A stretch of 64,000 bases of DNA from an uncultured cyanobacterium (GCA_963744145.1 CAVUSO010000001.1:2368001-2432000); one strand, 5' to 3'; positions 33,324-57,000 are shown, counted from the first letter of the stretch. The notes: generated by a model not told the origin, from the letters alone. Translations and numbers: made by a program.

Positions 33324-34471
33324 TACCAATTCTTGCAACTTTGACTACAGATAGTGTAGAGTATAATTTGAGTAGAGTTGAAGGAAAAATATGGCAGGAG
33401 TTTATCACCTAGACATTAAGGAAAGTGAAGCCGAGCTGAAGAAATTGCTCGCAGTGGAAAAAACTGGTCCAGGAAAAGAACGATTACAAGCATTATATCT
33501 ACTCAAGATAAACAAAGCTAAAACAGTCACAGAAGTTGCTGAAATCTTGGGCAGAAATCGAGTTACCGTTCAAGATTGGTTAGCCAAATACCGTCAAGGA
33601 GGATTGGCCAAATATCTGGGGAAAAAAGTGGGTACAGGCCGACCGAGAAAAATTCCTGACTGGGCGGTAAAAAGTTTAGAAAAACGACTAAATGAAGAGG
33701 AAGGATTTAATAGTTATGGGGAAATTTGTCAATGGCTATCATCCACCCTTGGGATAGAAGCTAAATATAAAACCGTTCATCAATTAGTGCATTATAAACT
33801 AAAAGCCTCACCAAAAATCGCCAGGCCGAAAAGTACAGAACAGTCAAAAAAAAAGTTAGATAATTTTAGAAATCACTTGGCGGAGGACTTAGCTATGCTG
33901 AGTTGGTTTGCCATAACAGTAATGAGTTTAGGAGATAAAGTCAGATTTTTATGTCAAGATGAAACACGGATCGGCATGAAAACGATTAGTGGGAGAAAAA
34001 TTACCATTCGTGGGGTAAAACCAATTGGTAAAGTGCAATGGAAATTTCAAGCGACTTATATTTATGGCGTAGTAGAGCCAAAGACAGGGGAACATTTCTT
34101 TTACGAGTTTACTCATCTCAATAGTCAATGCTTTCAGATATTTTTAGACTTAGTAGCCGCGCATTTTTCGGATAGTATTTTGATCATTCAGTTAGACAAT
34201 GGTGGTTTTCATAAAGCTAAAAAGTTGGTAATTCCTAAAAACGTTATTTTAATGTTTCAACCATCCCATTGTCCTGAATCAAATCCAATCGAACAGGTAT
34301 GGCAGTATCTCAAAAAGGGATTGAGATGGGAATTACCAAGAAACTTAGATGAATTAAGACTTTTAATTAGTAAAGAACTAGAAAAGATGAATTCAAAAGT
34401 AATTGCCTCAATTACGGGACGAGCCTATATATTAGAGGCACTATCTGTAGTCGGCATTTAGAGAATTGGTA
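33324..34471 (+). mobile_element. IS630 family insertion sequence
   Basis: Terminal inverted repeats TACCAATTC...GACTACAGATAG / CTATCTGTAGTC...GAATTGGTA, flanked by TTA on both sides. Confidence 0.92.
33391..34461 (+). CDS. IS630 family transposase (single ORF, DDE intact)
   Basis: HTH N-terminus, QDETR, QLDNG.FH and P.SNPIEQVW. Confidence 0.95.
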   Translation: MAGVYHLDIKESEAELKKLLAVEKTGPGKERLQALYLLKINKAKTVTEVAEILGRNRVTVQDWLAKYRQGGLAKYLGKKVGTGRPRKIPDWAVKSLEKRLNEEEGFNSYGEICQWLSSTLGIEAKYKTVHQLVHYKLKASPKIARPKSTEQSKKKLDNFRNHLAEDLAMLSWFAITVMSLGDKVRFLCQDETRIGMKTISGRKITIRGVKPIGKVQWKFQATYIYGVVEPKTGEHFFYEFTHLNSQCFQIFLDLVAAHFSDSILIIQLDNGGFHKAKKLVIPKNVILMFQPSHCPESNPIEQVWQYLKKGLRWELPRNLDELRLLISKELEKMNSKVIASITGRAYILEALSVVGI

Positions 34472-43927: not shown

Positions 43928-44001
43928 CGTGCCTCCTTTGCTGGTGCTAGCCAAGTAGCGAATCATTAATTCTATGCTAGCCATCTACTGGCATTTTTGG
44001 T

Positions 44002-44256
44002 TACATGGATTATTGGATGATCTGCACAGATTAGGAAGTGTGATCGCTCTAGCTCCTGACCCTGGAAAACCAGCGGAAGACCAATTTGGACGGGCTAATG
44101 GCTTACTCACTGTGTCAGAAATTTTGGACATGAAGCTAAAAGCAGATTTGTGTTGAGTGCCTGCGATCCGAGACGGGGCAAGATTACTGGGGATGGGGTG
44201 ATTGGATTGTCGCGATCGCTAATATCGGCAGGAATACCAAGTGTAATGGTTTCCCT
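44002..44256 (+). pseudogene. Degenerate CHAT fragment (HGLLDD...VMVS)
   Basis: Close match to 41886-42144 with small deletions. Confidence 0.85.
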
Positions 44257-44432: not shown

Positions 44433-45614
44433 CTATTCTTCCTCGATCGCGAGTTTTTCTTGGACGACAAACTCGCTAGTGAAAAAATCAAAATTATTAA
44501 GTCCAATAAACTTAAACTGCTCAATTTTGTCTTTCGAGTTAAAAATATTGTGTAATTTGGCACTACCTGATTTTCGTTCAATAACTGACCAATATTCTAA
44601 GGGAACACCATTCATAATAAATTCATCATTGGTAGTCATAATCAATTGAACTAATCCCGTTGCAGCTTTTTCAATAAGTATTTTAATGATCGCAGCAGAT
44701 CTTTCATAATCTAAACCTTCCCCAATATCATCAATAACAATACAACTAGGTTTACTCGATAGTAAAGAGTAGTTAATTTGAATAAACAATGATAATGCTC
44801 GAAACATTCCTTGTGACATTTCTGATTGTTCTGTAAAAGACTTTAAATCTTCTTCTTGAACATATAGAAATTCTACGACTTTACCTGGATGATCAGGAAA
44901 AATAATATTCTCTTTTAGGAAAGATGGCACTTTGGTTCCAATTTCTGATATATTATAGCCGATTCTTTTCATATCGCTGATAATTGCTTGTGTAAACCTC
45001 TTATTCATCTCTTCTTTTCCAAGCACAAATATACCAACAACATAATTATAATCTTTAAAGTTAATATTGGTTCCTATTGATTCGCTCCTAGAAATACCAG
45101 CTATCTTATCCTTACCTAATTGAGAACCAAACTCATAAAATCTTAGTGAATTAGACCATTGATATAAATCTTCTAAAAAAGGATGTTGGATCTCATCTCT
45201 GTGCTTGACTACAGCAAGTTCTGCTTTAGGAATTTTAAACTGTATGGATCTCTTGATTTCTTGAGTAAAAATATCGGCTGTGCCCAATTCGTCTCGCTTC
45301 AAAAGTTCTTTATGACCGATACAGAGTTTTTCTTGAATTACCAGACCTTTTTCTATTTTTAATATATATTCTGTTTGTTTTTCTGGCTGTTCAATATCAA
45401 ATAATAAGCGCCATTCATTATTTCCTAGTTGCGGATTAATAGTACCACTGTTTGATAATAGTTCTGAGAGAATATTGATAGCTTTTATAGTTCTTGATTT
45501 ACCAGTAGCATTTTTACCTACAATTAAATTTATTGTCCTCAACCGACATTCTTGTAATTGCCATTCACTAGGTAGACCTTGATTATAACAATATTTAAAA
45601 CTGTCTAGCTTCAT
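44433..45614 (-). CDS. AAA_21/AbiEii-like ABC-type ATPase
   Basis: NLIVGKNATGKS Walker A, MSQGMFR signature, VIDDIGEGLD Walker B and MTTND. Confidence 0.88.
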   Translation of the reverse strand: MKLDSFKYCYNQGLPSEWQLQECRLRTINLIVGKNATGKSRTIKAINILSELLSNSGTINPQLGNNEWRLLFDIEQPEKQTEYILKIEKGLVIQEKLCIGHKELLKRDELGTADIFTQEIKRSIQFKIPKAELAVVKHRDEIQHPFLEDLYQWSNSLRFYEFGSQLGKDKIAGISRSESIGTNINFKDYNYVVGIFVLGKEEMNKRFTQAIISDMKRIGYNISEIGTKVPSFLKENIIFPDHPGKVVEFLYVQEEDLKSFTEQSEMSQGMFRALSLFIQINYSLLSSKPSCIVIDDIGEGLDYERSAAIIKILIEKAATGLVQLIMTTNDEFIMNGVPLEYWSVIERKSGSAKLHNIFNSKDKIEQFKFIGLNNFDFFTSEFVVQEKLAIEEE

Positions 45615-45747
45615 AATTTTTGATCTTTGATTATCAAACAACTCTTGATCCAGGGCAAATATGCAGACATTTTTATTATTACAGATTTTTACCTTGTATT
45701 ATAACACAATAGGGTTTAGTTAAGCGATCAGAAAGCAAAAATAACTA

Positions 45748-45863
45748 GGACAGTCAAGATGACTGTCCCACAAGAGGTTTTTTTTTCTAGTGGGACGGAC
45801 ATCTTGTCTGTCCCTCTGTTTGATCATCTGTCCCTCTGTTTGATCATCTGTCCCTCTGTTTGA
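45748..45863. repeat. REP-like inverted pair plus 20-bp tandem repeat (about 2.9 copies)
   Basis: ggacagtcaagatgactgtcccac / gtgggacggacatcttgtctgtcc, then tctgtccctctgtttgatca at 45807, 45827 and 45847 (partial). Confidence 0.85.
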
Positions 45864-45869
45864 CAACAG

Positions 45870-46205
45870 TTAATCTTGATTTTCTTGTAAATTAGCTGTT
45901 TTGGCAATAGCTGGAGGAATAAAATTTGTCAGAGTTGCTAAAATATTCTGACATTGAGCGCAGCGGTTTCCTTCTAAACACCAACATTCTTTCACCAATC
46001 GACGCAGAAATGTCTTCAGTTTCCGATTTTCATCTACAACTTTTTTAAACCTAGTCTGTACTTGTTCAAGCGATCGCGATACATAACTTAAATCTGCCGC
46101 AATTCCATCTAAATTCATCAAGGTATCTTCGCTAAAACTATCGATATTATCCAGATGATGATCTAGCAGCATTTCCCCTAATCGATGAGTGATATTTGTT
46201 TGCAT
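45870..46205 (-). CDS. Hypothetical coiled-coil protein with CxC-x5-CxxC motif
   Basis: Heptad pattern SLEQVQTRFKKVVDENRKLKTFL followed by ECWCLEGNRCAQC. Confidence 0.75.
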   Translation of the reverse strand: MQTNITHRLGEMLLDHHLDNIDSFSEDTLMNLDGIAADLSYVSRSLEQVQTRFKKVVDENRKLKTFLRRLVKECWCLEGNRCAQCQNILATLTNFIPPAIAKTANLQENQD

Positions 46206-46236
46206 TGCTTTTCCATTCCTAATTAACAAAATTAAA

Positions 46237-46268
46237 CCTGGATGATCAGATTTTAAAGATCATCCAGG
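46237..46268. other. Intra-operon stem-loop
   Basis: cctggatgatc-N10-gatcatccagg perfect 11-bp stem. Confidence 0.65.
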
Positions 46269-46278
46269 ATTCATCCAT

Positions 46279-46980
46279 CTATGCTACGGCACTAGGTTTT
46301 CTCAATTCACTCTCAATTTCCATCACTTCTGCTGGTAACAACATTTCATTATGACCATGATTAGAGTCTGTATGAGTTGCCATTAAACAGGCAATTTGAT
46401 GGGGTGGTAAATTATCTAAGCAGATCATCTGACTCGTCCCTTCTAAATCAATCATCCGGGACTGATTGTGAGCATCTGCTAATACTGCTGCTGCTTGTTC
46501 TACTAGACCCCAATTAGTGCGTTCCACCCAATCCCATTTAATGCTATAATAATTGATTGGTTTGATCACACCTTCATCATTTGGTTTTTGTCCGGAATGC
46601 TTAATAAATTCGGGCACAAAAATTCCTTCAGCTGGTTCGACTCCCCGGGATTGAACGGAAGCAACTAAACGATTAAAATCGCTCAAACTGCGTCCTTTAA
46701 TATAGGTCACCATCACCACACCGGTTGGTAATTCTCCAGCTTCAGCTACAAACCATAATTGTCCCCACAAGGTGTTTTGAGTTTGTCCTAAACTGCCAAA
46801 AAATTTGCTGAATTTCAAAATTGTCATGGAGACTTTAGAACCATATTCTGTATCCGAAATTCGCCATTTTCCACTTTGACAATCATTCCGAACCGCAATG
46901 GGAATTTCTGGAACTAATAGAGCATCTTGGGCTTTAGAACCAAATACATTTATCATTGGTTTTTCATTTAGCTTCTTCAT
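46279..46980 (-). CDS. Hypothetical beta-rich protein, possibly a phage-like ssDNA-binding protein
   Basis: 233-aa ORF with aromatic-rich beta-strand patterns (WGQLWFV, YYSIKWDW) and a fairly acidic tail. The ORF is well supported; the function is inference only. Confidence 0.7.
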   Translation of the reverse strand: MKKLNEKPMINVFGSKAQDALLVPEIPIAVRNDCQSGKWRISDTEYGSKVSMTILKFSKFFGSLGQTQNTLWGQLWFVAEAGELPTGVVMVTYIKGRSLSDFNRLVASVQSRGVEPAEGIFVPEFIKHSGQKPNDEGVIKPINYYSIKWDWVERTNWGLVEQAAAVLADAHNQSRMIDLEGTSQMICLDNLPPHQIACLMATHTDSNHGHNEMLLPAEVMEIESELRKPSAVA

Positions 46981-47031
46981 TTTTATTTCTTCCTAATTGG
47001 TGTAAATTGACTGAAATATTCCCGTTCTTTC

Positions 47032-47307
47032 CTACTTTTCTGATCCCACAGGATACTGAAGTAAACGTCCATTTGTAGATCCAGTTTGACGCTCTAAGTT
47101 GGGCTGAGTTTTGATTCCTCGTAATGCTTCCACCAAGCTTTCTAAAATTTCGATGTGTGCTGGTTGAAAATGAATACTGAATCCTTGTCCATCTCGAGCT
47201 GAACCAGGGCATATTAAAGAGCAAGAGCTATATTCTGAGTGGGTGGCAATATATAGCCAGTCTTTTTCAATTAGCTTATAATGGGTATCATTCCAGGTTC
47301 TTAGCAT
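47032..47307 (-). CDS. Small hypothetical protein
   Basis: ATG preceded by AGGAGAAGGAC ribosome-binding site; first gene of the leftward operon. Confidence 0.65.
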   Translation of the reverse strand: MLRTWNDTHYKLIEKDWLYIATHSEYSSCSLICPGSARDGQGFSIHFQPAHIEILESLVEALRGIKTQPNLERQTGSTNGRLLQYPVGSEK

Positions 47308-47418
47308 TGTCCTTCTCCTAGTTGCTGCTGTCACCAAGCAGATTAGACCAGTGCCCCAGCTTTGGCCCACTTGCTTTCTGCGGTAAAAGCTAGATGAGTT
47401 GGTGAAAGTGTTGCTGTA

Positions 47419-47498
47419 TTGACTTTTTCATCAACCTAAATACATCCTAACCTAGGTTGATTTTTTCGTCAAGTAGATTTGGTTGATTTTTTCATCAA
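47419..47498. promoter_or_regulatory. Three operator-like repeats TTGA-N8-TCAA
   Basis: ttgactttttcatcaa (47419), ttgattttttcgtcaa (47457) and ttgattttttcatcaa (47483). Confidence 0.85.
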
Positions 47499-47521
47499 AT
47501 TTAGCTAAGATACCTATATAG

Positions 47522-47887
47522 TTGGAGAAAAAAGTCGTGCCTCAAAGTTTTGGTAAGCTACTTTTACAAGCCCGCAAAGACAAGGGATACTCTCAGAGGG
47601 AACTAGCGGCTCTATTAAAGCTAGATTTCACCTATTTGTCTAAGCTGGAAAATGATCGGGCAGAGTATGCCCCGAAAGAAGAAGTTATTCGGTCATTGGC
47701 CCACCATTTGGATTTAGATGCAGAGGAATTAATTTTCCTGGCTGGAAGATTTCCCCAACAGGATGAGGATTTTCTGAAGCAGAATTATAAGAATATGCCC
47801 GTTTTATTTCGGCGAATGCGGGAAAATCCTGATTTTGCGACCAAAATCTTTCAAGCTGCTACGGCAATCCAGGAGAAGCAAAGTTGA
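47522..47887 (+). CDS. XRE family HTH repressor
   Basis: FG..L..AR...GYSQRELA......TYLSKLENDR...P; start could be GTG 47537. Confidence 0.92.
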   Translation: MEKKVVPQSFGKLLLQARKDKGYSQRELAALLKLDFTYLSKLENDRAEYAPKEEVIRSLAHHLDLDAEELIFLAGRFPQQDEDFLKQNYKNMPVLFRRMRENPDFATKIFQAATAIQEKQS

Positions 47888-48603
47888 GTATTTTCAAGCC
47901 CTATCGTTTTTATCCTAAAGAAGAAATAGAACAGAGGGCGAATGACATCCTGTGGCAAATGCAGCAGCGTGGCCAAGGATTCGCCCCTGATTGGCCATTT
48001 GAAGCGTCCCGAGTAGCGGATTTTTTGGATTTGGGGGTAGTCTGGGATCAGATTACCCCGGATGAAGAAGGGCCGATCGCGGCGAGAATTCTCCCGACCA
48101 GGCGGCAAATCGAGATTAATGAAGATATTCTGAATTTGCCCCAGGGGTTTCAGGAATCGACGATCGCCCATGAAATTGGTCATTGGATCTTACATATTGA
48201 TCAATATGAAGTGGATGAGGTGGTCAAGCAGTCGGCCATTAATATCGGTCCTTTTGTGTGTCGAGTGAATAGCACTCAGCCCCAAATTGCTTCCATGGAA
48301 TGGCAAGCTCAATATTTTGCTAGCTGTTTGCTGATGCCCAAGCACATTTTACAGGAAAAATGTCAGGGGCTTGATTTAAGGAAGTGGTCTGATCTCTATT
48401 TAATGCGTGAGCACTTAGGGGTGAGCATTTCTAATTTGGCTAATCGTTTGCAGGATCTGGGTTGGATTTACATTCCCAAGGGCAGCAGACGGATTTATGG
48501 TAGTAAGGAAGAAGCTAATCGGAGATCTCTGGATAGTTCTGAGGATTTTTTGACCCAGGCGATCGCCCGAGTTCCTGTTGGTAATTCCTTGAGCCGCTGT
48601 TGA
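47884..48603 (+). CDS. ImmA/IrrE family metallo-endopeptidase
   Basis: TIAHEIGH (HExxH), EWQA..FA.CLLMP and a C-terminal HTH (LGVS); 4-bp overlap with the XRE gene. Confidence 0.93.
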   Translation: MSIFKPYRFYPKEEIEQRANDILWQMQQRGQGFAPDWPFEASRVADFLDLGVVWDQITPDEEGPIAARILPTRRQIEINEDILNLPQGFQESTIAHEIGHWILHIDQYEVDEVVKQSAINIGPFVCRVNSTQPQIASMEWQAQYFASCLLMPKHILQEKCQGLDLRKWSDLYLMREHLGVSISNLANRLQDLGWIYIPKGSRRIYGSKEEANRRSLDSSEDFLTQAIARVPVGNSLSRC

Positions 48604-48623: not shown

Positions 48624-51600
48624 TTACCAAGGATTACCGATGATGGTAAAAGCACTCCAATAATAGGGATGAGATAAGTTTTTGTTACGAATTTCATGTA
48701 ATTCTGGGGGTAAAGGTAAGGTCTGCTGGGGAGTAATTAATTGCCCGGATTCAATCCGTACTTTACCCCGAATCATGGCTAACTGAGCTTGTCGTAATGC
48801 TTCAGCTTTAATGGGAACTTTCCGAAGTTGCTGATAAAATTCAGTCATTAATCCCAGAGTGCCCTCATCAGAAATATACCAAAGAGATGCTAACGCTGAT
48901 TTGACTCCCACTTGGAAAGCTAATCCAGCAAAACCTAATTCGGCATTTTCATCACCGATCGCAGTTCGACAAGCACTTAAAACTAAGAGTTCGACTGGGG
49001 GTTTATTCCAGTCGATGGTTCTGAGATCGGGTAAAGGTAATTTGCGATCGACAAACTGAATATAGGAATTGCGAGGTTCTCCAGGAGTAAAGTCAGCATG
49101 GGTTGCTAGGTGAATGATTGCAAAAGGATGAGAAAGACGTTGAGATTTTAGGGTTTCGATCGTAAAGTCACGATTGAGAATTGATTTACCTCCCCAATTT
49201 TTGCGCCACTACTCTTGCTTCTGCTTCTGCTGCGGGTAAGGGGTTTTGGGAATCGATAAATTTAGCAGCTCCCATTGCTAAAACTTGGGAGTTACGCAGG
49301 TCAATCCGTTGTAAGTCTGTCAGGTTTAAACTGGGCATTAAACCCACACTATATTTTTCTATAATAAACTCTTTTCCGTTAGACATAGCCGCTAAGGGAA
49401 TGCTGCGTAAATTCACATCCATCACATAAACTAAGTTTTGAATGTTCTGTTTTTGCAATTCTGGCTCTAATGGTGCTAATAACCATTGATACATTTGTTG
49501 GGCTGGTACTAAATAACCATGGGTATTTCTAAGATCGCTGGTGTCGCGACGAAAATTATTAGCGATCGCGATAACTTCAGCTCTGGTAGCATTAGTTGAG
49601 CGACGAATTGGTTTAGTTTTGGCTGTGACTAAAATTAGCTCTAGCCGATCGCTATCTGTGGGAATTTGCGATCGCAATAAGGGAGGTATTTGTTTTAAGT
49701 TACTTGACTTTGGAGCCGCAGTAATAGTTTCTGGAACAAATACGGCATAAATAATTGCAGGTTTTATTCCGGTAGCTTTTTCTATACTACCAAGTAGATC
49801 CTGAGCCGCACTGAGAGAAATATTTTTTGACTCATTTAAGCCGAAATATTTGACAAAATCTTGGCTGAATATCTGATCAATTTCTAGAGTTTCTGGCGCT
49901 TGATTGGTAATTATTGGTAAAGCTTTGAGATGATTTTCTATACTACTTAAATCAACCGGATTAATTGCTAAATTTTGTTTAGGTGTAGGAGTTGGTGTGG
50001 GAGTTGGTGCGGGAGTTGGTGCGGGAGTTGGGGTAGGTGTGGGAGTTGGTGTGGGAGTTGGGGTAGGTGCGGGAGTTGGTGTGGGAGTTGGGGTAGGTGT
50101 GGGAGTTAGTGTGGGAGTTGGGGTAGGTGCGGGAGTTGGTGTGGGTGTAGGTGTGGGAGTTGGTGCGGGAGTTGGTGCAGGAACAGATATAATTTGAATG
50201 CGATTGTTATCTTGAGTATAAGTATATAAAAAAGAACCACTAGCAATAGTTGCTTGGGACATATTTCCTTCCGTCAGACTTCCTTTAGTACCATTAGTAG
50301 TAACATTTCCAACTATAAAAGGAATAATTCCATTTCCACCATGTTGAATAATAATATTTCCGCCGCGAAATGGGATGCTACTAGCAGCACAAATACTGGT
50401 ATTTATACAGTTTGAAAAAGTGAAAGTTCCGGGAATTGTCAAAAATTTGCTGGTGTTAATATTAACGTTACCACCAGCACTTTGTCCAAAAGTATTAATG
50501 GTATTTATTTGAACATCACTGCTAGAATTAATCTTAATATTGCCACCAATTCCATTATTAATAGCACTAGAATTAAGATCGGCAGTTTTAATAGTGTTGA
50601 GCGATTGAATAGTAATTGCTCCTCCATTACCTGAATTAGAACTAGAATTCAATGTACCTGTGGTAGTATCAATTATACCGTTAGTGCTATTAATATTAAT
50701 ACTTCCACCATTTCCGCTCCCAACATTTGCGACACCAGAGGAATTAGCGCGAATATCTCCTGCTAAATTAATATTTCCCGCAGCAGTTAGTGCAACTGCA
50801 CCCGCATTACCAAGATTTGATTTAGAAATTAAGGAACTAGAACTAATTGTGCTTGATGTACTTTTGAGCGTAATATTACCACCATTTTTAGTTCCAGAAC
50901 TTGCGCTAGCATCTAAAACAAGAGTATTAATTTTTCCCGCAGCAATGATACTGATATCACCCCCATTACTTAGCGTAGAACTAGATATAATTGAATCTGT
51001 ATTAATTGCACCATTACTGCTGCTAAGTGTAATCGTTCCCCCGCTTCCTATACTACTAGAATCAAGATTTGGGGTGCTAATATCTCCGGTAGCATTTAAG
51101 CTAATATTTCCACCATTACCTTGATGAGAATTAGCATTGATTGTATTAGTAGTAATTACACCACTTTGATTAGTGATAGTAATATTACCAGCATTTTTGA
51201 GACCACCAGAACTAGAATTAATAGTATTGGTAATAACTTTATCACCTCCAGCTTGGAGATTAATTTCTCCACCTTGACCAAAAGCAGAATTAGTAGTTAC
51301 ATTACCAGTAAAAATTGCCCCGGTACTGCTACTAAGGTTGACACTTCCACCTGTTCCAGCACCACTAACACTAGTATCAATATTACCAGTAGTTACCGGA
51401 GTAGTACCAGCAATTGCAATCGCACCTCCATTAGCAGAAATTGAATTAGAGTTAATATTTCCAGTAGTAATGAATCCAGTTTGATTTTTTACAGTAATAT
51501 TTCCCCCATTACCAGTACCTGTGGAACTAGAATTGAGTGTGGTTGTAGTAATTGACTGTGCTGATTGTAATGCAATATCACCACCATTACCTGAATTAGA

Positions 51601-54015
51601 ACTAGAGTTAATACTGCTAGTTGTAATCATCCCCATTTGACTGGTTAAATTAATATTGCCCCCAGTAGCATTAGTTGAACTAGAATTAACAGTAGTTAGA
51701 TTCAGATTGCTTCCTGCTGAAAAGGCGATCGCACCTCCATTTCCATTAGTAGAACTAGCATCAGTAGCATTACCATTAATAGTACCATTACTACTAGCAA
51801 TAGTTATATTTCCTCCTCCTAATTGTCCTGAAGAATTTGTCCCATTAGGAATATTTATATCACCAATACTCTTAATCTTTACTTCTCCACCAATTCCATT
51901 AACACTTGCATAAGAATTTATATTTTGCACAGTAAGAGAGCCACCATTTTGGATGGTAATATTACCACCACCCATCTGACCATTTGTCCCAATATTGCTA
52001 AGAATATTAATATTATTAGCAGCATTGAGGGTAATTGAACCACCGATTAGCCCTCCTGTACCAATATATGCAACATTAGTGATAATTGAACCGTTATTAC
52101 TGGTGAGATTAATATTGCCACCCTTTCCTGTAAAACTAGCACTACCAGCATCTATATAACTAGAAGTAACATTACCACCAGCAGTGACAGAAATATTACC
52201 ACCATTTCCACTAGCACCAAATGACACGATCGTCTGAATGTCTCTAGTAGTAACGTTATTTCCAGCATTAACAGTGATATTTCCACTATTACCAGTACCA
52301 CTACTTAAGATAGCTTGTAATGTGCGGGTACTAATATTATTTTTAGCAGTTAAATTCAATTCACCCGGTTTTGTAGCAAAACTGGTAGAAATATTTCCAG
52401 TAGTAATATTTGCGGCAGAAATTGTGATATCTCTACCATTAGTATTAATGTCATCGGTTGGAGTTTGCACCGTAAAAGACCCTACTCCAGTATTATTAGC
52501 ATCAGCAGTAAAGGTAATTGAACCTCCCCCAGATACAAAGTTAAGCCCAGCACCAGAAGTAATGGTAATATTATTAGTTGCTTCTAAGATTACATTTCCA
52601 GTTTGATTTTGCAGAGCTGTATTAGAAATAGTAAAAGTGGTGGGAGGACTAGCACTAGCAAAAATTGTTGGTAAAAAACTATCTTGTGGTTCACTTGGAC
52701 TAGCAACAATGTTAATATCGGTGGGATCTAATAATAAAGTACCTAATTTTCCTTTAGTCGCGTTCAGATTCACTAGACCATCAAAAGTTAGGTTTTCTTT
52801 CCCAGAAATTTCGACAAATCCCCCATTTCCAGAATTAATTCCACCTGGAGCGTTAATATTACCAAAAAAGTTAGTTACTCGATCGCTCCAAACAATCACG
52901 CTTCCACCATCTCCAGTTTTACCTCCATTAGCATTAATAATTGTATCTTTACTAACAAACGTTTCTAGTGCATTCGGGACATTTCCTTTTCCTTGAAAAT
53001 CTCCCCCGATTCGGACTATTCCTCCGGAACCTGAAGCATTAATATTCCCATTAATTAGTCCCACTTCTTGACCCAATATGTTGATATTTCCCCCAATTTT
53101 ATGATCAGGTTGAGAAACATCTAATTGACCTGATGCGATCGCCATTCCAGTTAAATTAGGAATCTTAATCTCGGAATTTTTTACAGTCAATGTTCCATCA
53201 GAATTAACATCAACTCCGGTTTCGATTCCAGCAGCATTTCCTGTCAATAAAGTTGGTAAATCTAGAGGTTTAATTGAGAGAATATTTCCTTCCTGATTCC
53301 GGGGTGGAGTAATTTCTAAACTCAGTAAGTGTCCTGGTTGACTAATTTTAATTACTTGGTCACCGGGAACAGCACTAATGGTCAGAGTTCCTCCTGGAAC
53401 TGTGAGCTGTCCTGTATTGATCACATTCCCACTCAGTAAAGTTAGACTTTGACCTGGTAATAGGGTTAAATTACCTGCATTAATAATATTTCCTGCTTGA
53501 ATATAGTCAAATGCAAATTGACTAGGATTACCGATTAAATTCTGATAATTGTTAACCCTAAAACTATTAAACCAATTATTGTTACCAAAACCGATCCCGG
53601 TTGCGGTAGTTGCGGTAAATGAAGCTGGTAGATTTAATTGAGCATGGGAGCCAAAGATAATTCCGGATGGATTGATTAAAAATAAGTTTGCGTTCCCTCC
53701 TGTTACCTGAATTAAGCCATTAATTAAAGAAGGATTACCCCCAACTACTCGACCTAATATATTATGGATCTGAGGAGTAATTTGAAAATTAGCAGTTTGA
53801 TTTGCTGATAAACCGAATTGCTCGAAACTATGGAACAAATTCGTGCGATCGCCCGATAATGTCCCACCGCGAATATCAAAACGATTACCGTTCTGGTTGA
53901 CTAAAGTATGGGTCCCATCAGATGCGGATGTAATTGGTTGAGCTGTGACTATCGAGTAAGTAGTGAACGGAAAAAGTAAAGGTAAAAGCACCCAAATTTG
54001 ACGAAGATTTAGCAT
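48624..54015 (-). pseudogene. Haemagglutinin(TPS)-CHAT protein, copy 3, with +1 frameshift near 49200
   Basis: [14 protein letters not shown], beta-helix and PT linker. One extra A in a run (caaaaattgg) shifts the frame; HLATH, LSAC and YYWSAF.IIGNPW continue in the next frame to 48624. Confidence 0.88.
49982..50180. repeat. Pro-Thr hexamer coding microsatellite
   Basis: ggtgtg/ggagtt-type repeats encoding (PT/PA)n. Confidence 0.9.
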
Positions 54016-54053
54016 AGTCTTAATTTCTGATAACTTTAATTTAAGGTGATTGG

Positions 54054-57000
54054 TTACCAAGGATTACCAATGATAGTGAAACCACTCCAATAATAAGGAT
54101 GAGATAAGTTTTTATTACTTACTTCATGTAACTCTTGGGGTAAAGGTAATTTGCTACCAGTGGTAATTAATTGTCCAGCTTCGAGTCGAACTTTTCCCGG
54201 ATCATTGCTAACTGAGCTTGTCGTAATGCTTCAGCTTTGATGGGAGTCTTCCGGAGTTGCTGATAAAATTCAGTCATTAATCCCAGAGTGCCTTCATCCG
54301 AAATAGACCAAAGCGATGCTAATGCTGATTTTACACCAACTTGTACAGCTAATCCAGCAAAACCTAACTCGGTATTTTCATCACCGATCGCAGTCCGACA
54401 AGCACTTAAAACTAAAAGTTCGACTGGAGGTTTATTCCATTCGATGGTTCTGAGATCTGGTAAATATAGTTTGCGATCGACAAACTGAATATAAGAATTT
54501 TCTGGCTTTTTTGATGAGAATTCAGCATGAGTCGCAAGATGAATGATCCCAAAATGGCCAGCAGCCCGTAGGGCTTTGAGGTTTTCGATGGTAAAATCTT
54601 GCTCAATAATTGATCTACCACCCCAATTTTTCGCGATCGCTAATACTTCTGATGTTGCTGCTGGTAAAGGGGTTAAATCATCAGTAAATTTTGAAGCACC
54701 CATGGCTAAAACTTGAAAGTTACGAATATTGACATGATGTAAATCTGTGAGATTTAAACTTGGCATTAATCCCACACTATATCGTTCGATGATAAACTCT
54801 TTACCATTAGACATAGCCGCTAAAGGAATACCACGTAAATTCACATCCATCACATAAACTAAATTTTGGATGCCCTGTTTTTGTAATTCGGATTCTAATG
54901 GTGCTACTAACCATTGATACATTTGCCGGGCTGGTACTAAATAACCACGAAAATTTCTGATATTGCTAGTATTGTTACGAAAATCGTTCGCGATCGCCAT
55001 TACTTGGGTTCTAGTTGCTTTCGTGGAGCGACGGATTGGCTTTCCTTGGGCTGTGACCAAAATTAGTTCCAGTCGATCACGATCTGCCGGAATCAGCGAT
55101 CGCAACAACAGAGGTACTTGTTTTAAGTTACTTGATTCGGTCGCTGGAGTGATAGATTCTGGCACAAATACAGCATAAATAATTGCAGGTTTTACTCCAG
55201 TATTTTCTTCTATATTATGGAGAATGTTGCGAGTTTCACTTAGGGAAATATTTCTGATATTTTCTAATCCAAAATAATTGATAAAATCTTGGCTAAATAA
55301 CTGATCAATTTCTAGAGTTTGAGGATCATTTGCAAGTAGTGGTAAAAAATTGATGTGCTGTTCTGTATTTGTTAAATCAATGGGATTAATTTTTAAATTC
55401 TGTTGATTAGATTTTGTAGGTGTAGGTGTAGGTGTAGGTATGGGTGTGGGTATGGGTGTGGGTGTAGGTATGGGTGTGGGTGTGGGTATGGGTGTAGGTA
55501 TAGGTGTAGGTGTGGGTGTAGGTATGGGTGTGGGTGTAGGTGTAGGTGTGGAAGTGAAAGATATAATTTGAATCTGATTTATGTTATTAGTAATACTATT
55601 TGTGGCAGTTAAAACCAGTTCACTCGGTGTAGTAGGAAAAGTTGTAGCAATATTTCCAGCATAAATATTTGTAGCTGAAACTTTGATATTTCTACCATTG
55701 GTAATAACCTGATCGGCTGGATTTTGCACTATAAAAGAACCAACACCAGAATTTGTAGCATCAGCAGTAAATGTAATTGAACCTCCACCAGGAACAAAAT
55801 TAAGCCCAGCACCGGAAGTAATGGTAATGTTATTAGTTGCTTGTAAGATTACATTACCAGTTTGACTTTGCAGTGCGTTTTGTGAGATTGTAAAGGTTGC
55901 AGGAGGACTGGTACTAGCAAAAATTGTTGGTAAAAAACTATCTTGAGGCGCACTTGTGCCAGGAATAATAATAATATCAGTTGGATCTAATAGTAAAGTT
56001 CCAAAACTACCTTTAGGAGCATTTAGATTAACTATTCCGTTGAAAGTTAGATTTTCTTTACCCGATATTTCTGTCAATCCACCATTCCCTGAATTAATTC
56101 CACCACGATCGCTAATATTACCAAAAAAATTTGTTACTTGATCACTCCAAACAACAATATTTCCGCCATTACCATAATTAATTGCATCAGCATTAATCGT
56201 CGAACCTTGACTAACAAAAGTTTGAGTTGCATTTGGTGCAGTTCCCTTACCTTGAAAATCACCACCAATTTTTATTGTTCCTCCACCATTACCACCAGCA
56301 GCATTAATATTGCCATTAATCACACCTACTTTACTACCAAAAATATTTATATTTCCCCCAGGTTGTGATAAATTAGATGTATCTAATTTGCCAGAAGCGA
56401 TCGCCATTCCTGGTAAATTAGGAATATTAATATCCGAATTTTTTAGTTGGAGAGTACCATTTGGATTGACAGTAACTCCAGTTTCCAAATTTCTAGCGTT
56501 TCCCGTAAGTAAAGTGGGCAAATCTATTAGTTTAATTGGTAGGATATTGCCATTATTATTGCGTGGTGGAGTGATTTCTAAACTCAGTAAATGTCCGGGT
56601 TGACTAATTTTGATTACTTCCTCACCAGGTACAGCCGTGATCGTAAGATTTCCCGCTGGTGCTATGAGTTTTCCTGTATTAATAACGTTACCGCTAAGTA
56701 AAGTTAAATTTTGTCCTGGTAACACAGTTAAATTACCAGCATTAATAACATTTCCAGTCTGAGAACTATCAAAAGCAAATTTACTCGGAGTTCCGGTGAG
56801 ATTCTGATAATTGTTAGCGCCAAAAATATTAAACCAATTATTACCACCAAATCCGATTCCAGTAGCAGTAGTAGCAGTAAATGAACCAGGAATATTTAAT
56901 TGAGCATTTGTGCCAAAGATAATCCCTGCTGGGTTAATTAAAAATAAGTTAGCATTCCCTCCTGTTACTTGAATTAAACCATTAATTAGAGAAGGATTTC

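Follow-up and report, generated by a model that had tools for sequence, protein, structure and literature searches.

The stretch of DNA analyzed here, hereafter the window, is 64,000 nt long and belongs to the 7.7-Mb genome of an uncultured cyanobacterium (GCA_963744145.1 CAVUSO010000001.1:2368001-2432000). It contains a cassette in which the overlapping genes of an XRE-type repressor and of a metallopeptidase of the M78 family are divergently transcribed from three genes, here called A, B, and C (Table 1). An earlier note on this DNA had described the locus as an overlapping XRE/HExxH pair facing three uncharacterized open reading frames (ORFs) of 91, 233, and 111 aa, and all five genes were recovered at the same positions in the ORF list and in the sequence. 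The overlap between the XRE stop codon and the TTG start of the M78 gene amounts to 4 nt, and the Pfam assignments agreed with the description of the pair. The three other ORFs were likewise found to be uncharacterized, with no family match for A, B, or C in Pfam, PHROGs, PADLOC, or NCBIfam.

Table 1. Positions of the genes and regulatory features of the cassette, counted from the first nucleotide of the window, and of the related remote locus, in coordinates of the genome assembly.
Feature	Position	Strand	Description
Terminator-like hairpin	45746-45770	-	11 pairs and a T-rich tail, ~100 nt downstream of C
Three 20-nt tandem repeats (TCTGTCCCTCTGTTTGATCA)	45807-45866		Directly downstream of C, where relatives carry CC1
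Gene C	45870-46205	-	111 aa from ATG 46205; 119 aa from TTG 46229
Gene B	46279-46980	-	233 aa
Gene A	47032-47307	-	91 aa; opens the output operon; belongs to no known family
Operator-like box 1 (TTGACTTTTTCATCAA)	47419-47434		Just downstream of the predicted A-B-C transcription start
Predicted A-B-C promoter	47472-47444	-	TTGACG, 17-nt spacer, TAGGAT
Operator-like box 2 (TTGATTTTTTCGTCAA)	47457-47472		Overlaps the -35 of the A-B-C minus-strand promoter
Operator-like box 3 (TTGATTTTTTCATCAA)	47483-47498		Overlaps the proposed -35 of the xre promoter
Proposed xre promoter	47483-47488 and 47506-47511	+	TTGATT, 17-nt spacer, TAAGAT
XRE repressor	47537-47887	+	116 aa from GTG 47537; GGAG at 47524-47527 precedes the start
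M78 peptidase	47884-48603	+	239 aa, TTG start; ImmA/IrrE/CapP-type zinc metallopeptidase
Fourth operator-like box	C1:5692109-5692124		On the -35 of TTGACG, 17 nt, TAGAAT; ~350 nt upstream of CC1
Coiled-coil pair CC1-CC2	G000:C1:5692463-5694579		3.3 Mb from the cassette

The longest ORF of gene A, 47032-47370(-), encodes 112 aa; its relatives conserve an MLRTW start, which lies at 47307 in the window and gives the 91-aa product. For the XRE gene, whose longest ORF, 47522-47887(+), begins at TTG 47522 and encodes 121 aa, the choice of start followed an alignment with 19 homologues whose sequences begin with M-x-x-(S/T)-F-G. Gene C encodes a coiled-coil region followed by a cysteine cluster, C-x-C-x5-C-x2-C, which is found in most but not all homologues, the first or the second cysteine being sometimes replaced. 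For gene A, a protein atlas returned low scores only, and the best of them, 0.84, can be taken as a lead and nothing more. The cassette is present as a single copy in its genome.

A gene-neighbourhood search, as suggested in the earlier note, revealed a strongly conserved synteny across 80 related genome loci. Gene A was found in 71 of them (54-75% identity), XRE in 67, M78 in 66, and C also in 66, at only 26-41% identity, and in 73 loci C was followed by a pair of coiled-coil genes, CC1 and CC2. In these relatives, CC1 and CC2 are paralogous, encode proteins of ~325 and 360 aa, and lie on the same strand as C. Four of the nine loci devoid of A had B at the locus edge and two were on contigs of 2.5-3.2 kb, while the other three (L039, L072, and L080) had full flanks, two of these being second copies in genomes that also possess a complete cassette. 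The cassette is therefore not the compact, stand-alone system of five genes that had been proposed, as the coiled-coil pair follows C in 73 of the 80 loci: the normal output of the operon consists of A, B, C, CC1, and CC2, and the older core consists of XRE/M78 and CC1-CC2. In the genome of the window, the operon ends at the hairpin located downstream of C; in relatives, it runs on into CC1-CC2. Since relatives carry the coiled-coil genes at the position of the three tandem repeats, these repeats may be the scar of a rearrangement. A 28-nt inverted repeat adjoins the 20-nt tandem repeats (window 45748-45866).

The three operator-like boxes, which had also been noticed earlier, were confirmed as exact copies of a 16-mer, TTGAYTTTTTCRTCAA, at 47419, 47457, and 47483, between XRE and A; they overlap promoter hexamers and are conserved in relatives. 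No other match to this 16-mer was found in the window, even with up to two mismatches (expected number, 0.61; three matches were reached in 5 of 100 shuffles), and the whole genome contains four exact matches, three of them in the cassette, so that the box, of the form TTGA-N8-TCAA, marks only two loci in this genome. The xre promoter was read by eye and, with 8 of 12 matches, fell under the threshold of the promoter scan. The start-to-start spacings of the boxes are 38 and 26 nt, and ~37 and 24 nt in relatives. According to our own reading of the table, boxes with up to two mismatches were present in the XRE-A gap of 66 of the 67 related loci with XRE, and none was present in the C-CC1 gap of the related loci.

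In the genome of the window, the CC pair was found at a distance from the cassette, behind the fourth exact copy of the box (Table 1). The promoter of this remote CC1 gene repeats the box-on-the-35 arrangement of the cassette, and we propose that the remote box keeps the relocated CC1-CC2 pair in the same regulon. A second, independent split of the regulon is found in another genome (G029), in which the CC pair lies 3.6 Mb from XRE-M78, behind two box-like sites, and a TnpB-like gene (L113:1935-3125) holds the place of the output operon beside XRE-M78. We take these split arrangements as the strongest in silico evidence that XRE controls both loci. Two copies of a ~45-nt repeat (ending ...CCCAACCCTTCTCCTCAAATGAGAGG...) were also observed between the remote box promoter and CC1 (L088:1560-1740; G000:C1, ~5692170-5692350), and these lengthen the CC1 leader to ~350 nt.

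The distribution of these genes was analyzed further. Gene B has 269 homologues; the 120 that were listed show 64-78% identity and are all called hypothetical, those with a named source being nearly all from filamentous cyanobacteria. Among 401 sampled cyanobacterial genomes, B was detected in 31 (25 close homologues, and six at 34-40% identity), the M78 subfamily in 54, and the CC pair in 80, nearly always in tandem (two matches in 78 of the 80 positive genomes, one in G238, and three in G314). In one family, f3, B was present in 23 of 25 genomes, M78 in 25 of 25, and the CC pair in 24 of 25; in another, f6, the CC pair was present in 27 of 45. According to our own reading of the tables, each of the 25 genomes in which B is close holds M78 and the CC pair as well, and 43 of the 54 M78 genomes hold the CC pair.

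Twelve further loci, a biased sample picked for adjacent M78 and CC coordinates, were inspected for gene order. In nine of them (L119-L127, from five families), the order was M78, XRE, an intergenic gap, CC1, and CC2, with no A-B-C, and TTGA-N8-TCAA boxes were located in the XRE-CC1 gap of eight of these nine four-gene loci; in the remaining three loci, the contig edge was reached or M78 was on another contig. The occurrence of this four-gene core without A-B-C in other families indicates that A-B-C was inserted in a particular lineage. Twelve CC-positive loci from genomes lacking a close B were also compared: XRE adjoins the CC pair in three (61-66% identical, with the same boxes), M78 was adjacent in none, and the other nine had neither gene adjacent. 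These loci form an evolutionary series that leads from the CC pair alone to XRE with the CC pair, then to XRE/M78 with the CC pair, and finally to the insertion of A-B-C behind the operator, the window being this last form, secondarily split.

We also analyzed the flanks of the cassette, as an occurrence of homologues only inside recognizable prophages or integrative and conjugative elements (ICEs) would have spoken against the reading of the earlier note. This was not the case: the 57 ORFs that flank the cassette in 12 loci, taken from diverse genera, included no integrase, transposase, phage structural gene, or transfer gene. The flanks vary between genera and are mostly housekeeping genes, encoding for instance ArgRS, AdoHcy hydrolase, GUN4, an HflX-like GTPase, or LpxD, and a few are defence-like (AAA_15 with DUF3226, NACHT, DNA methylases). 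These results support a chromosomal location of the cassette, outside any recognizable prophage or ICE.

The XRE protein comprises a helix-turn-helix (HTH) domain (Pfam HTH_3, E 4.5e-11), with capH as the best PADLOC model (6.4e-9), and a ~45-aa C-terminal region with a conserved LFRR motif, whose residues F91, R92, and R93 are nearly invariant or invariant in the alignment of 19 homologues. The M78 protein matches Pfam Peptidase_M78 ('IrrE N-terminal-like domain') over residues 72-189 (E 3.8e-12), and its best PADLOC model is capP (E 1.1e-16), of which only profile positions 34-153 of 242 are matched. Its HEIGH motif and a downstream stretch, MEWQAQYFASCLLMP, are invariant in 61 distinct homologues, and the HExxH and a third-ligand motif are intact. 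When PDB sequences were searched with the M78 profile, the sole match was CapP (7t5t), and this match was weak (E 0.0096). These similarities support, at the level of sequence, the earlier proposal that XRE/M78 is a switch pair of the ImmR-ImmA, DdrO-IrrE, and CapH-CapP kind, and by analogy with these pairs we propose that M78 may be the protease that cleaves the XRE repressor. Since the conserved LFRR motif lies in the region equivalent to that of F82|R83 in CapH, it constitutes a candidate cleavage site.

Structural predictions were made for the product of gene B. A first model, based on close homologues, had a predicted local distance difference test (pLDDT) value of 65.5; a profile search of 1.84 billion representatives then yielded 200 relatives of B, and an AlphaFold2 model built with a 95-sequence alignment reached a pLDDT of 92.0 and a predicted template modelling score of 0.84, giving a confident fold for one of the three ORFs for which the earlier note had suggested a structural check. 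Over 48,161 chains, VIA-align placed at the top 9teh_I, a fusion of the phiC31 integrase with its recombination directionality factor (RDF) (Z 6.9, 123 residues aligned), together with gp32 of phage T4 (8gme_B, Z 6.9, 122 aligned) and of phage RB69 (Z 6.3, 118 aligned), values below 8, for which the tool warns that a match may be a common arrangement. Below these three, the 50 listed rows were mostly proteins with an oligonucleotide/oligosaccharide-binding (OB) fold that bind single-stranded DNA (ssDNA) or nucleic acids. In BFVD, 40 phage proteins matched B at E<=1e-3, most of them unnamed and two named ssDNA-binding, and a DUF5895 protein at rank 44 was just above the E cut-off. The RDF of phage TG1, a relative of phiC31 gp3, is described in the available text of PMC11795197 as experimentally shown to be a gp32-like ssDNA-binding protein (SSB). 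Taken together, B looks, as modelled, like an OB-fold protein resembling the phage gp32 and phiC31 gp3-type ssDNA binders, and we infer that it may bind ssDNA.

Distant homologues of B (26-40% identity) were found near PD-(D/E)XK nucleases (two of five loci), RecD2, AAA_25, HNH, Prim-Pol/PriCT, ParA/ParB-like, and DUF5131 genes and, on four cyanobacterial plasmids, among genes typical of a plasmid leading region. These relatives thus sit in phage or plasmid replication modules, and their neighbours agree with the reading of B as an ssDNA binder. Hidden Markov models (HMMs) of A and C detected nothing beside them. Mutually similar proteins of ~143 aa, whose similarity was judged by eye, were seen near distant B homologues in two phage-like regions (L095:6681-7118 and L097:4354-4782); they had no match in Pfam or PHROGs and may recur as partners of B-family proteins in mobile elements. 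Sequence searches with B itself gave little: none of 95 members of the B family matched Pfam, two B profiles found nothing among PDB sequences, and tblastn of B against 50,697 GenBank phage records found nothing. Two leads from the protein atlas, PF23977 (Pam3_Gp34) and PF19247 (DUF5895), were not reproduced by hmmscan on 18 or 95 members and were abandoned. In the 95-sequence alignment, C34 is the sole nearly invariant cysteine.

The CC1 and CC2 proteins match phrog_29668, of unknown function, over its full length (E 5e-16 to 4e-20) and have no match in Pfam; their database names are SMC-like ('SbcCD ATPase subunit', 'chromosome segregation ATPase', 'myosin heavy chain'). Among GenBank phages, CC2 has a relative only in Bacillus phage G (gp268, 26% identity). 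Among 14 control genomes, phrog_29668 matches only that of Deinococcus radiodurans, which fits the homology published for two conserved Arh proteins (see below). A resemblance to PprA was considered and dropped after single-sequence and profile searches of PDB sequences gave no relative. By description and distribution rather than by sequence, CC1 and CC2 are probably of the same kind as ZicK and ZacK (Alr4504/Alr4505), adjacent coiled-coil proteins of Anabaena which, according to the available text of a preprint, co-polymerise and keep trichomes straight (10.1101/553073).

The architecture of the locus matches that reported for arhR/arhA-E in Limnospira indica PCC 8005 in the accessible parts of two papers (PMC8400943, PMC4398503), and the suggestion that such a system had not been described before is thus probably incorrect. 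As reported there, gamma rays raise the expression of the arhA-E genes (ARTHROv5_10467-10471) 8-30-fold; co-transcription of the five is considered probable, and the divergent XRE gene arhR 'very likely' controls them, the function and regulation of the arh genes being described as unknown (PMC8400943). According to the text available of another study, they rank first among the induced genes and remain elevated during recovery, and recA is not induced (PMC4550399). Two of the Arh proteins are described as SMC-like, with ~48% identity to proteins from Nostocaceae and a homologue in D. radiodurans, and the product of _10468, at the position of B, was found to be upregulated 7-fold at the protein level (PMC4398503, available text). 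Finally, in the supplement rows seen, the unnamed gene ARTHROv5_10465, next to arhR, was upregulated 2.7-fold like arhR.

In both cases, an XRE gene is transcribed divergently from a row of five co-oriented genes without known function, of which the last two are SMC-like, and the same order is found in 73 of the 80 relatives of our locus; by position, A corresponds to arhA, B to arhB, and C to arhC, and the co-induction of ARTHROv5_10465 with arhR, as given in those rows, is what would be expected of an M78 gene. The two differ in that, in the genome of the window, the last two genes are found at a distance of 3.3 Mb, relocated with their own operator, and in that the papers, as far as their text was available, describe neither a peptidase, nor operators, nor an SSB-like fold: the words 'peptidase' and 'ImmA' occur 0 times in the text available for PMC8400943, and 'XRE' 0 times in that for PMC4550399. 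A literature search for arhR returned only PMC8400943, and no Arthrospira or Limnospira record is among the 80 loci kept or the 120 B homologues listed. The locus is probably of the arhR/arhA-E type, an identification made by architecture and not from the Arh sequences.

From these results, we consider it reasonably probable that the cassette and the remote CC pair form a stress-inducible regulon of filamentous cyanobacteria, composed of a proteolytic XRE/M78 switch at an arh-type locus and an ssDNA-binder-like output. An XRE oligomer would bind the three TTGA-N8-TCAA operators over the -35 regions of the two divergent promoters, shutting off A-B-C and limiting the expression of its own xre-M78 operon, and the fourth operator, 3.3 Mb away, would hold the relocated CC1-CC2 pair under the same control. 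A damage signal, most likely ssDNA by analogy with CapP and PprI/IrrE, would activate the co-transcribed M78 peptidase, which would cut XRE in its C-terminal oligomerisation region, possibly at LF|RR; the cut repressor would fall off and all the output genes would be induced. B would be a phage-derived, gp32-like OB-fold protein coating or handling ssDNA, CC1-CC2 would be the older output, an SMC-like coiled-coil pair, probably of the ZicK/ZacK kind, and A and C would be small partners. The regulon is real and chromosomal, and it is probably DNA damage-inducible, by analogy with the Limnospira locus. A broader proposal, which we regard as tentative and rather doubtful at present, is that filamentous cyanobacteria possess a LexA- and RecA-independent DNA damage response of a build similar to IrrE/DdrO in Deinococcus, in which the short, single-domain M78 would cleave ArhR and free an ancient pair of SMC-like, filament-forming proteins of the ZicK/ZacK family and, in Microcoleaceae-type lineages, a captured phage gp32-like ssDNA-binding protein with two small partners, which together might coat and scaffold damaged DNA.

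Several observations weigh against the proposal of a damage-responsive proteolytic regulon. Neither of the two B models (pLDDT 65.5 and 92.0) gave a Foldseek match in the PDB at E<=1e-3; the structural matches of B stay under the safe level of VIA-align (Z<8), and a gp32-like zinc site was not seen in B, the model being without metal. The M78 protein is short (226-239 aa), and phmmer searches of PDB sequences with it or its profile did not find IrrE. Given this length and a capP match limited to positions 34-153, the GAF-like sensor domain that CapP and IrrE possess is apparently missing from it, and the sensing of ssDNA may therefore not carry over. Furthermore, three genomes that are 99-100% complete (G296, G008, and G178) hold XRE, boxes, and the CC pair, and M78 was not found in them at E<=1e-3; as the XRE of these M78-less genomes keeps LFRR, this motif may be structural and the switch can work without the M78 protease. 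The equation with arh rests on gene order and paper descriptions, and induction by ionising radiation is known for the Limnospira locus only. Similarly, the equation of CC1/CC2 with ZicK/ZacK rests on paper descriptions, not on an alignment with Alr4504/Alr4505, and ZicK/ZacK are described, in the available text, as a constitutively transcribed shape determinant in Anabaena (10.1101/553073).

The surroundings of the cassette in the window were also examined. They include a lone AAA_21 ATPase gene, PIN/RHH pairs, and CHAT and TPS-CHAT genes, none of which accompanies the cassette elsewhere among the 80 related loci. The AAA_21 ATPase (44433-45641(-), 402 aa) has AbiLi (3.9e-20) and AriA (5.6e-19) as best PADLOC models, and no partner gene was seen. 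The TPS-CHAT gene is apparently broken (48624-48911(-) and 49186-54060(-)): the 1624-aa TPS-CHAT ORF stops at position 118 of 289 of the CHAT profile, and a separate 95-aa ORF covers positions 221-289. A further CHAT-like fragment is located at 43974-44156(+), and the window also contains several CHAT proteins, a caspase-like C14 protein, and two PIN-domain genes, one of them beside an RHH antitoxin gene. It had been stated that no integrase, phage structural, conjugation, or CD-NTase gene is nearby; this is partly supported, with no mobile-element gene of this kind beside the cassette and no CD-NTase match among the six proteins compared with PADLOC. A DDE_3 transposase gene (33391-34461) lies 12 kb from the cassette.

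Other explanations were considered. XRE could mainly regulate ZicK/ZacK-type filaments under envelope or mechanical stress, in a cell-shape or cytoskeleton regulon of which A-B-C would be a passenger insertion. The link of XRE with the CC pair is indeed wider than that with A-B-C or M78, ZicK and ZacK are described as keeping Anabaena trichomes straight (10.1101/553073, available text), and Alr4505 and Alr4504 are reported, in the text available, to increase 20-fold and 4.35-fold under BMAA stress (PMC8147232). However, CC1/CC2 were likened to ZicK/ZacK by description, induction of the full architecture has been measured directly for ionising radiation only, as far as the available texts go, and the M78 partner and the ssDNA-binder-like output fit DNA damage better; moreover, after damage the filaments might work on the nucleoid or on the envelope, which would make a role in cell shape compatible with the regulon proposed above. 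As a separate explanation, we find it unlikely. The earlier note had also proposed an output in DNA damage or phage defence. An anti-phage module, in which a CapH/CapP-type regulator would raise A, B, C, CC1, and CC2 upon infection-made ssDNA, could account for capH and capP being the best PADLOC models, for the phage relatives of B and the CC proteins, and for the AbiLi/AriA-like ATPase, PIN/RHH, and CHAT or caspase-like neighbours and the few defence-like flanks in relatives, and CapH/CapP-like pairs are reported to adjoin diverse known and putative immune operons (10.1101/2022.04.27.489752, available text). Against this, effector domains, whether nuclease, lipase, pore, NADase, or others, are not seen in A, B, C, CC1, and CC2, and A-C have no PADLOC match; the flanks are mostly housekeeping genes; the genes are near-universal in family f3 and encode proteins 60-77% identical across genera, unlike the patchy spread usual for defence islands; and the matching Limnospira locus is described, in the available text, as responding to gamma rays in phage-free cultures. 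No result turned out to favour an anti-phage output specifically, and this reading is weak and distinctly improbable; what favours DNA damage is the published work, as available, on the probable orthologues.

The association of ImmR/ImmA-type pairs with mobile elements raises the question of whether the cassette is the remnant of a temperate phage or plasmid, or a satellite, that is still selfish or mobile, with A-B-C as early replication genes. ImmA-type pairs typically control mobile elements, as stated in the available text of 10.1101/2022.04.27.489752, and distant B homologues occur on cyanobacterial plasmids and in phage-like regions with replication genes. Yet genes for an integrase, a transposase, capsid, tail, or conjugation are absent from the 57 flanking ORFs, the genome carries the cassette once, and the gene order of the cassette is kept across many genera. 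The HMMs of A and C match nothing beside the distant B homologues, and tblastn of B was negative in the GenBank phage records; in addition, XRE/M78 appears older than the A-B-C insertion, as it faces CC1-CC2 directly in other families. We therefore judge this explanation very improbable. Finally, XRE/COG2856 pairs are said to be listed in comparative surveys as toxin-antitoxin-like modules, and XRE could accordingly be the antitoxin of a type II system with the COG2856 protein as its 'toxin' and no connection with the genes nearby. However, the same cargo and operators stay linked to the pair across families, even after the cargo has moved away, and XRE is present without M78 in three complete genomes, which leaves almost no room for this explanation.

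If the proposed regulon is correct, it would bear on genes of practical interest, as the arh genes are described, in the text available, as those that radiation induces most strongly and most persistently in Limnospira, a cyanobacterium used in space life-support research (PMC8400943). For these genes, the model specifies an operator, pairs the repressor with a protease and a candidate cleavage site, describes a regulon kept together though split, and provides an ssDNA-binder-like fold for the second gene as well as an evolutionary series. Several points seem to be new within the literature searched, namely the pairing with a protease, the operator and a regulon spread over two loci, the phage descent of the second gene and its gp32-like fold, and the evolutionary series. 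The model may also connect three literatures that apparently do not cite each other, those on arh, on ZicK/ZacK, and on CapH/CapP with IrrE/DdrO. If the LexA- and RecA-independent response considered above exists, the occurrence of this coiled-coil family in D. radiodurans as well would suggest a common radiation-resistance device that has not been recognized before.

DdrO/IrrE is the closest analogue for the way in which the XRE/M78 pair would operate. In Deinococcus, the LexA-independent XRE repressor DdrO is cut by IrrE, a COG2856/M78 peptidase, after radiation, and this cleavage induces repair genes, including those of alternative ssDNA-binding proteins; PprI/IrrE is reportedly activated by ssDNA. 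The cassette differs from this system in having two overlapping genes in one operon and a regulon of two loci: the Deinococcus ddrO and irrE genes are unlinked, the regulon comprises ~20 genes, and the operator motif, RDRM, is unlike TTGA-N8-TCAA. The closest sequence models are those of CapH/CapP, in which an HTH repressor and an M78 peptidase are likewise encoded together and divergently from the regulated operon. CapP is described, in the available text, as a peptidase activated by ssDNA that cuts CapH at F82|R83 in its C-terminal helix (10.1101/2022.04.27.489752), and the F-R dipeptide of our XRE is located in the C-terminal region where CapH is reported to be cut. Unlike CapH/CapP loci, the cassette has no CD-NTase or known immune effector, nor any PADLOC match for A, B, and C; its M78 protein matches only the M78 part of the capP profile, seems too short for the second domain of CapP, and has a marginal sequence relation to the solved CapP (E 0.0096). 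With ImmR/ImmA of ICEBs1 and phages, it shares an adjacent repressor and single-domain M78 anti-repressor protease and divergent promoters with several operators, and it differs from them in being chromosomal and vertically conserved, with no integrase, excisionase, or transfer genes nearby.

As for the output genes, phage gp32-type SSBs and the RDFs TG1 gp25 and phiC31 gp3 represent the best structural matches of B, over ~120 residues of OB-fold core, with differences in that Z is 6.3-6.9, identity is 10-14%, the gp32-like zinc site was not seen, and B belongs to no Pfam family. CC1/CC2 resemble ZicK/ZacK in forming an adjacent paralogous coiled-coil pair with SMC-like annotation, found in many cyanobacteria and not in picocyanobacteria, the published homologues being ~55% identical according to the text available; the preprint (10.1101/553073), as available, shows no repressor or protease, and 'DNA damage' occurs 0 times in it. 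Among all these systems, the locus is best filed as a secondarily split member of the arh-type locus, itself a variant of the XRE/M78 proteolytic switch.

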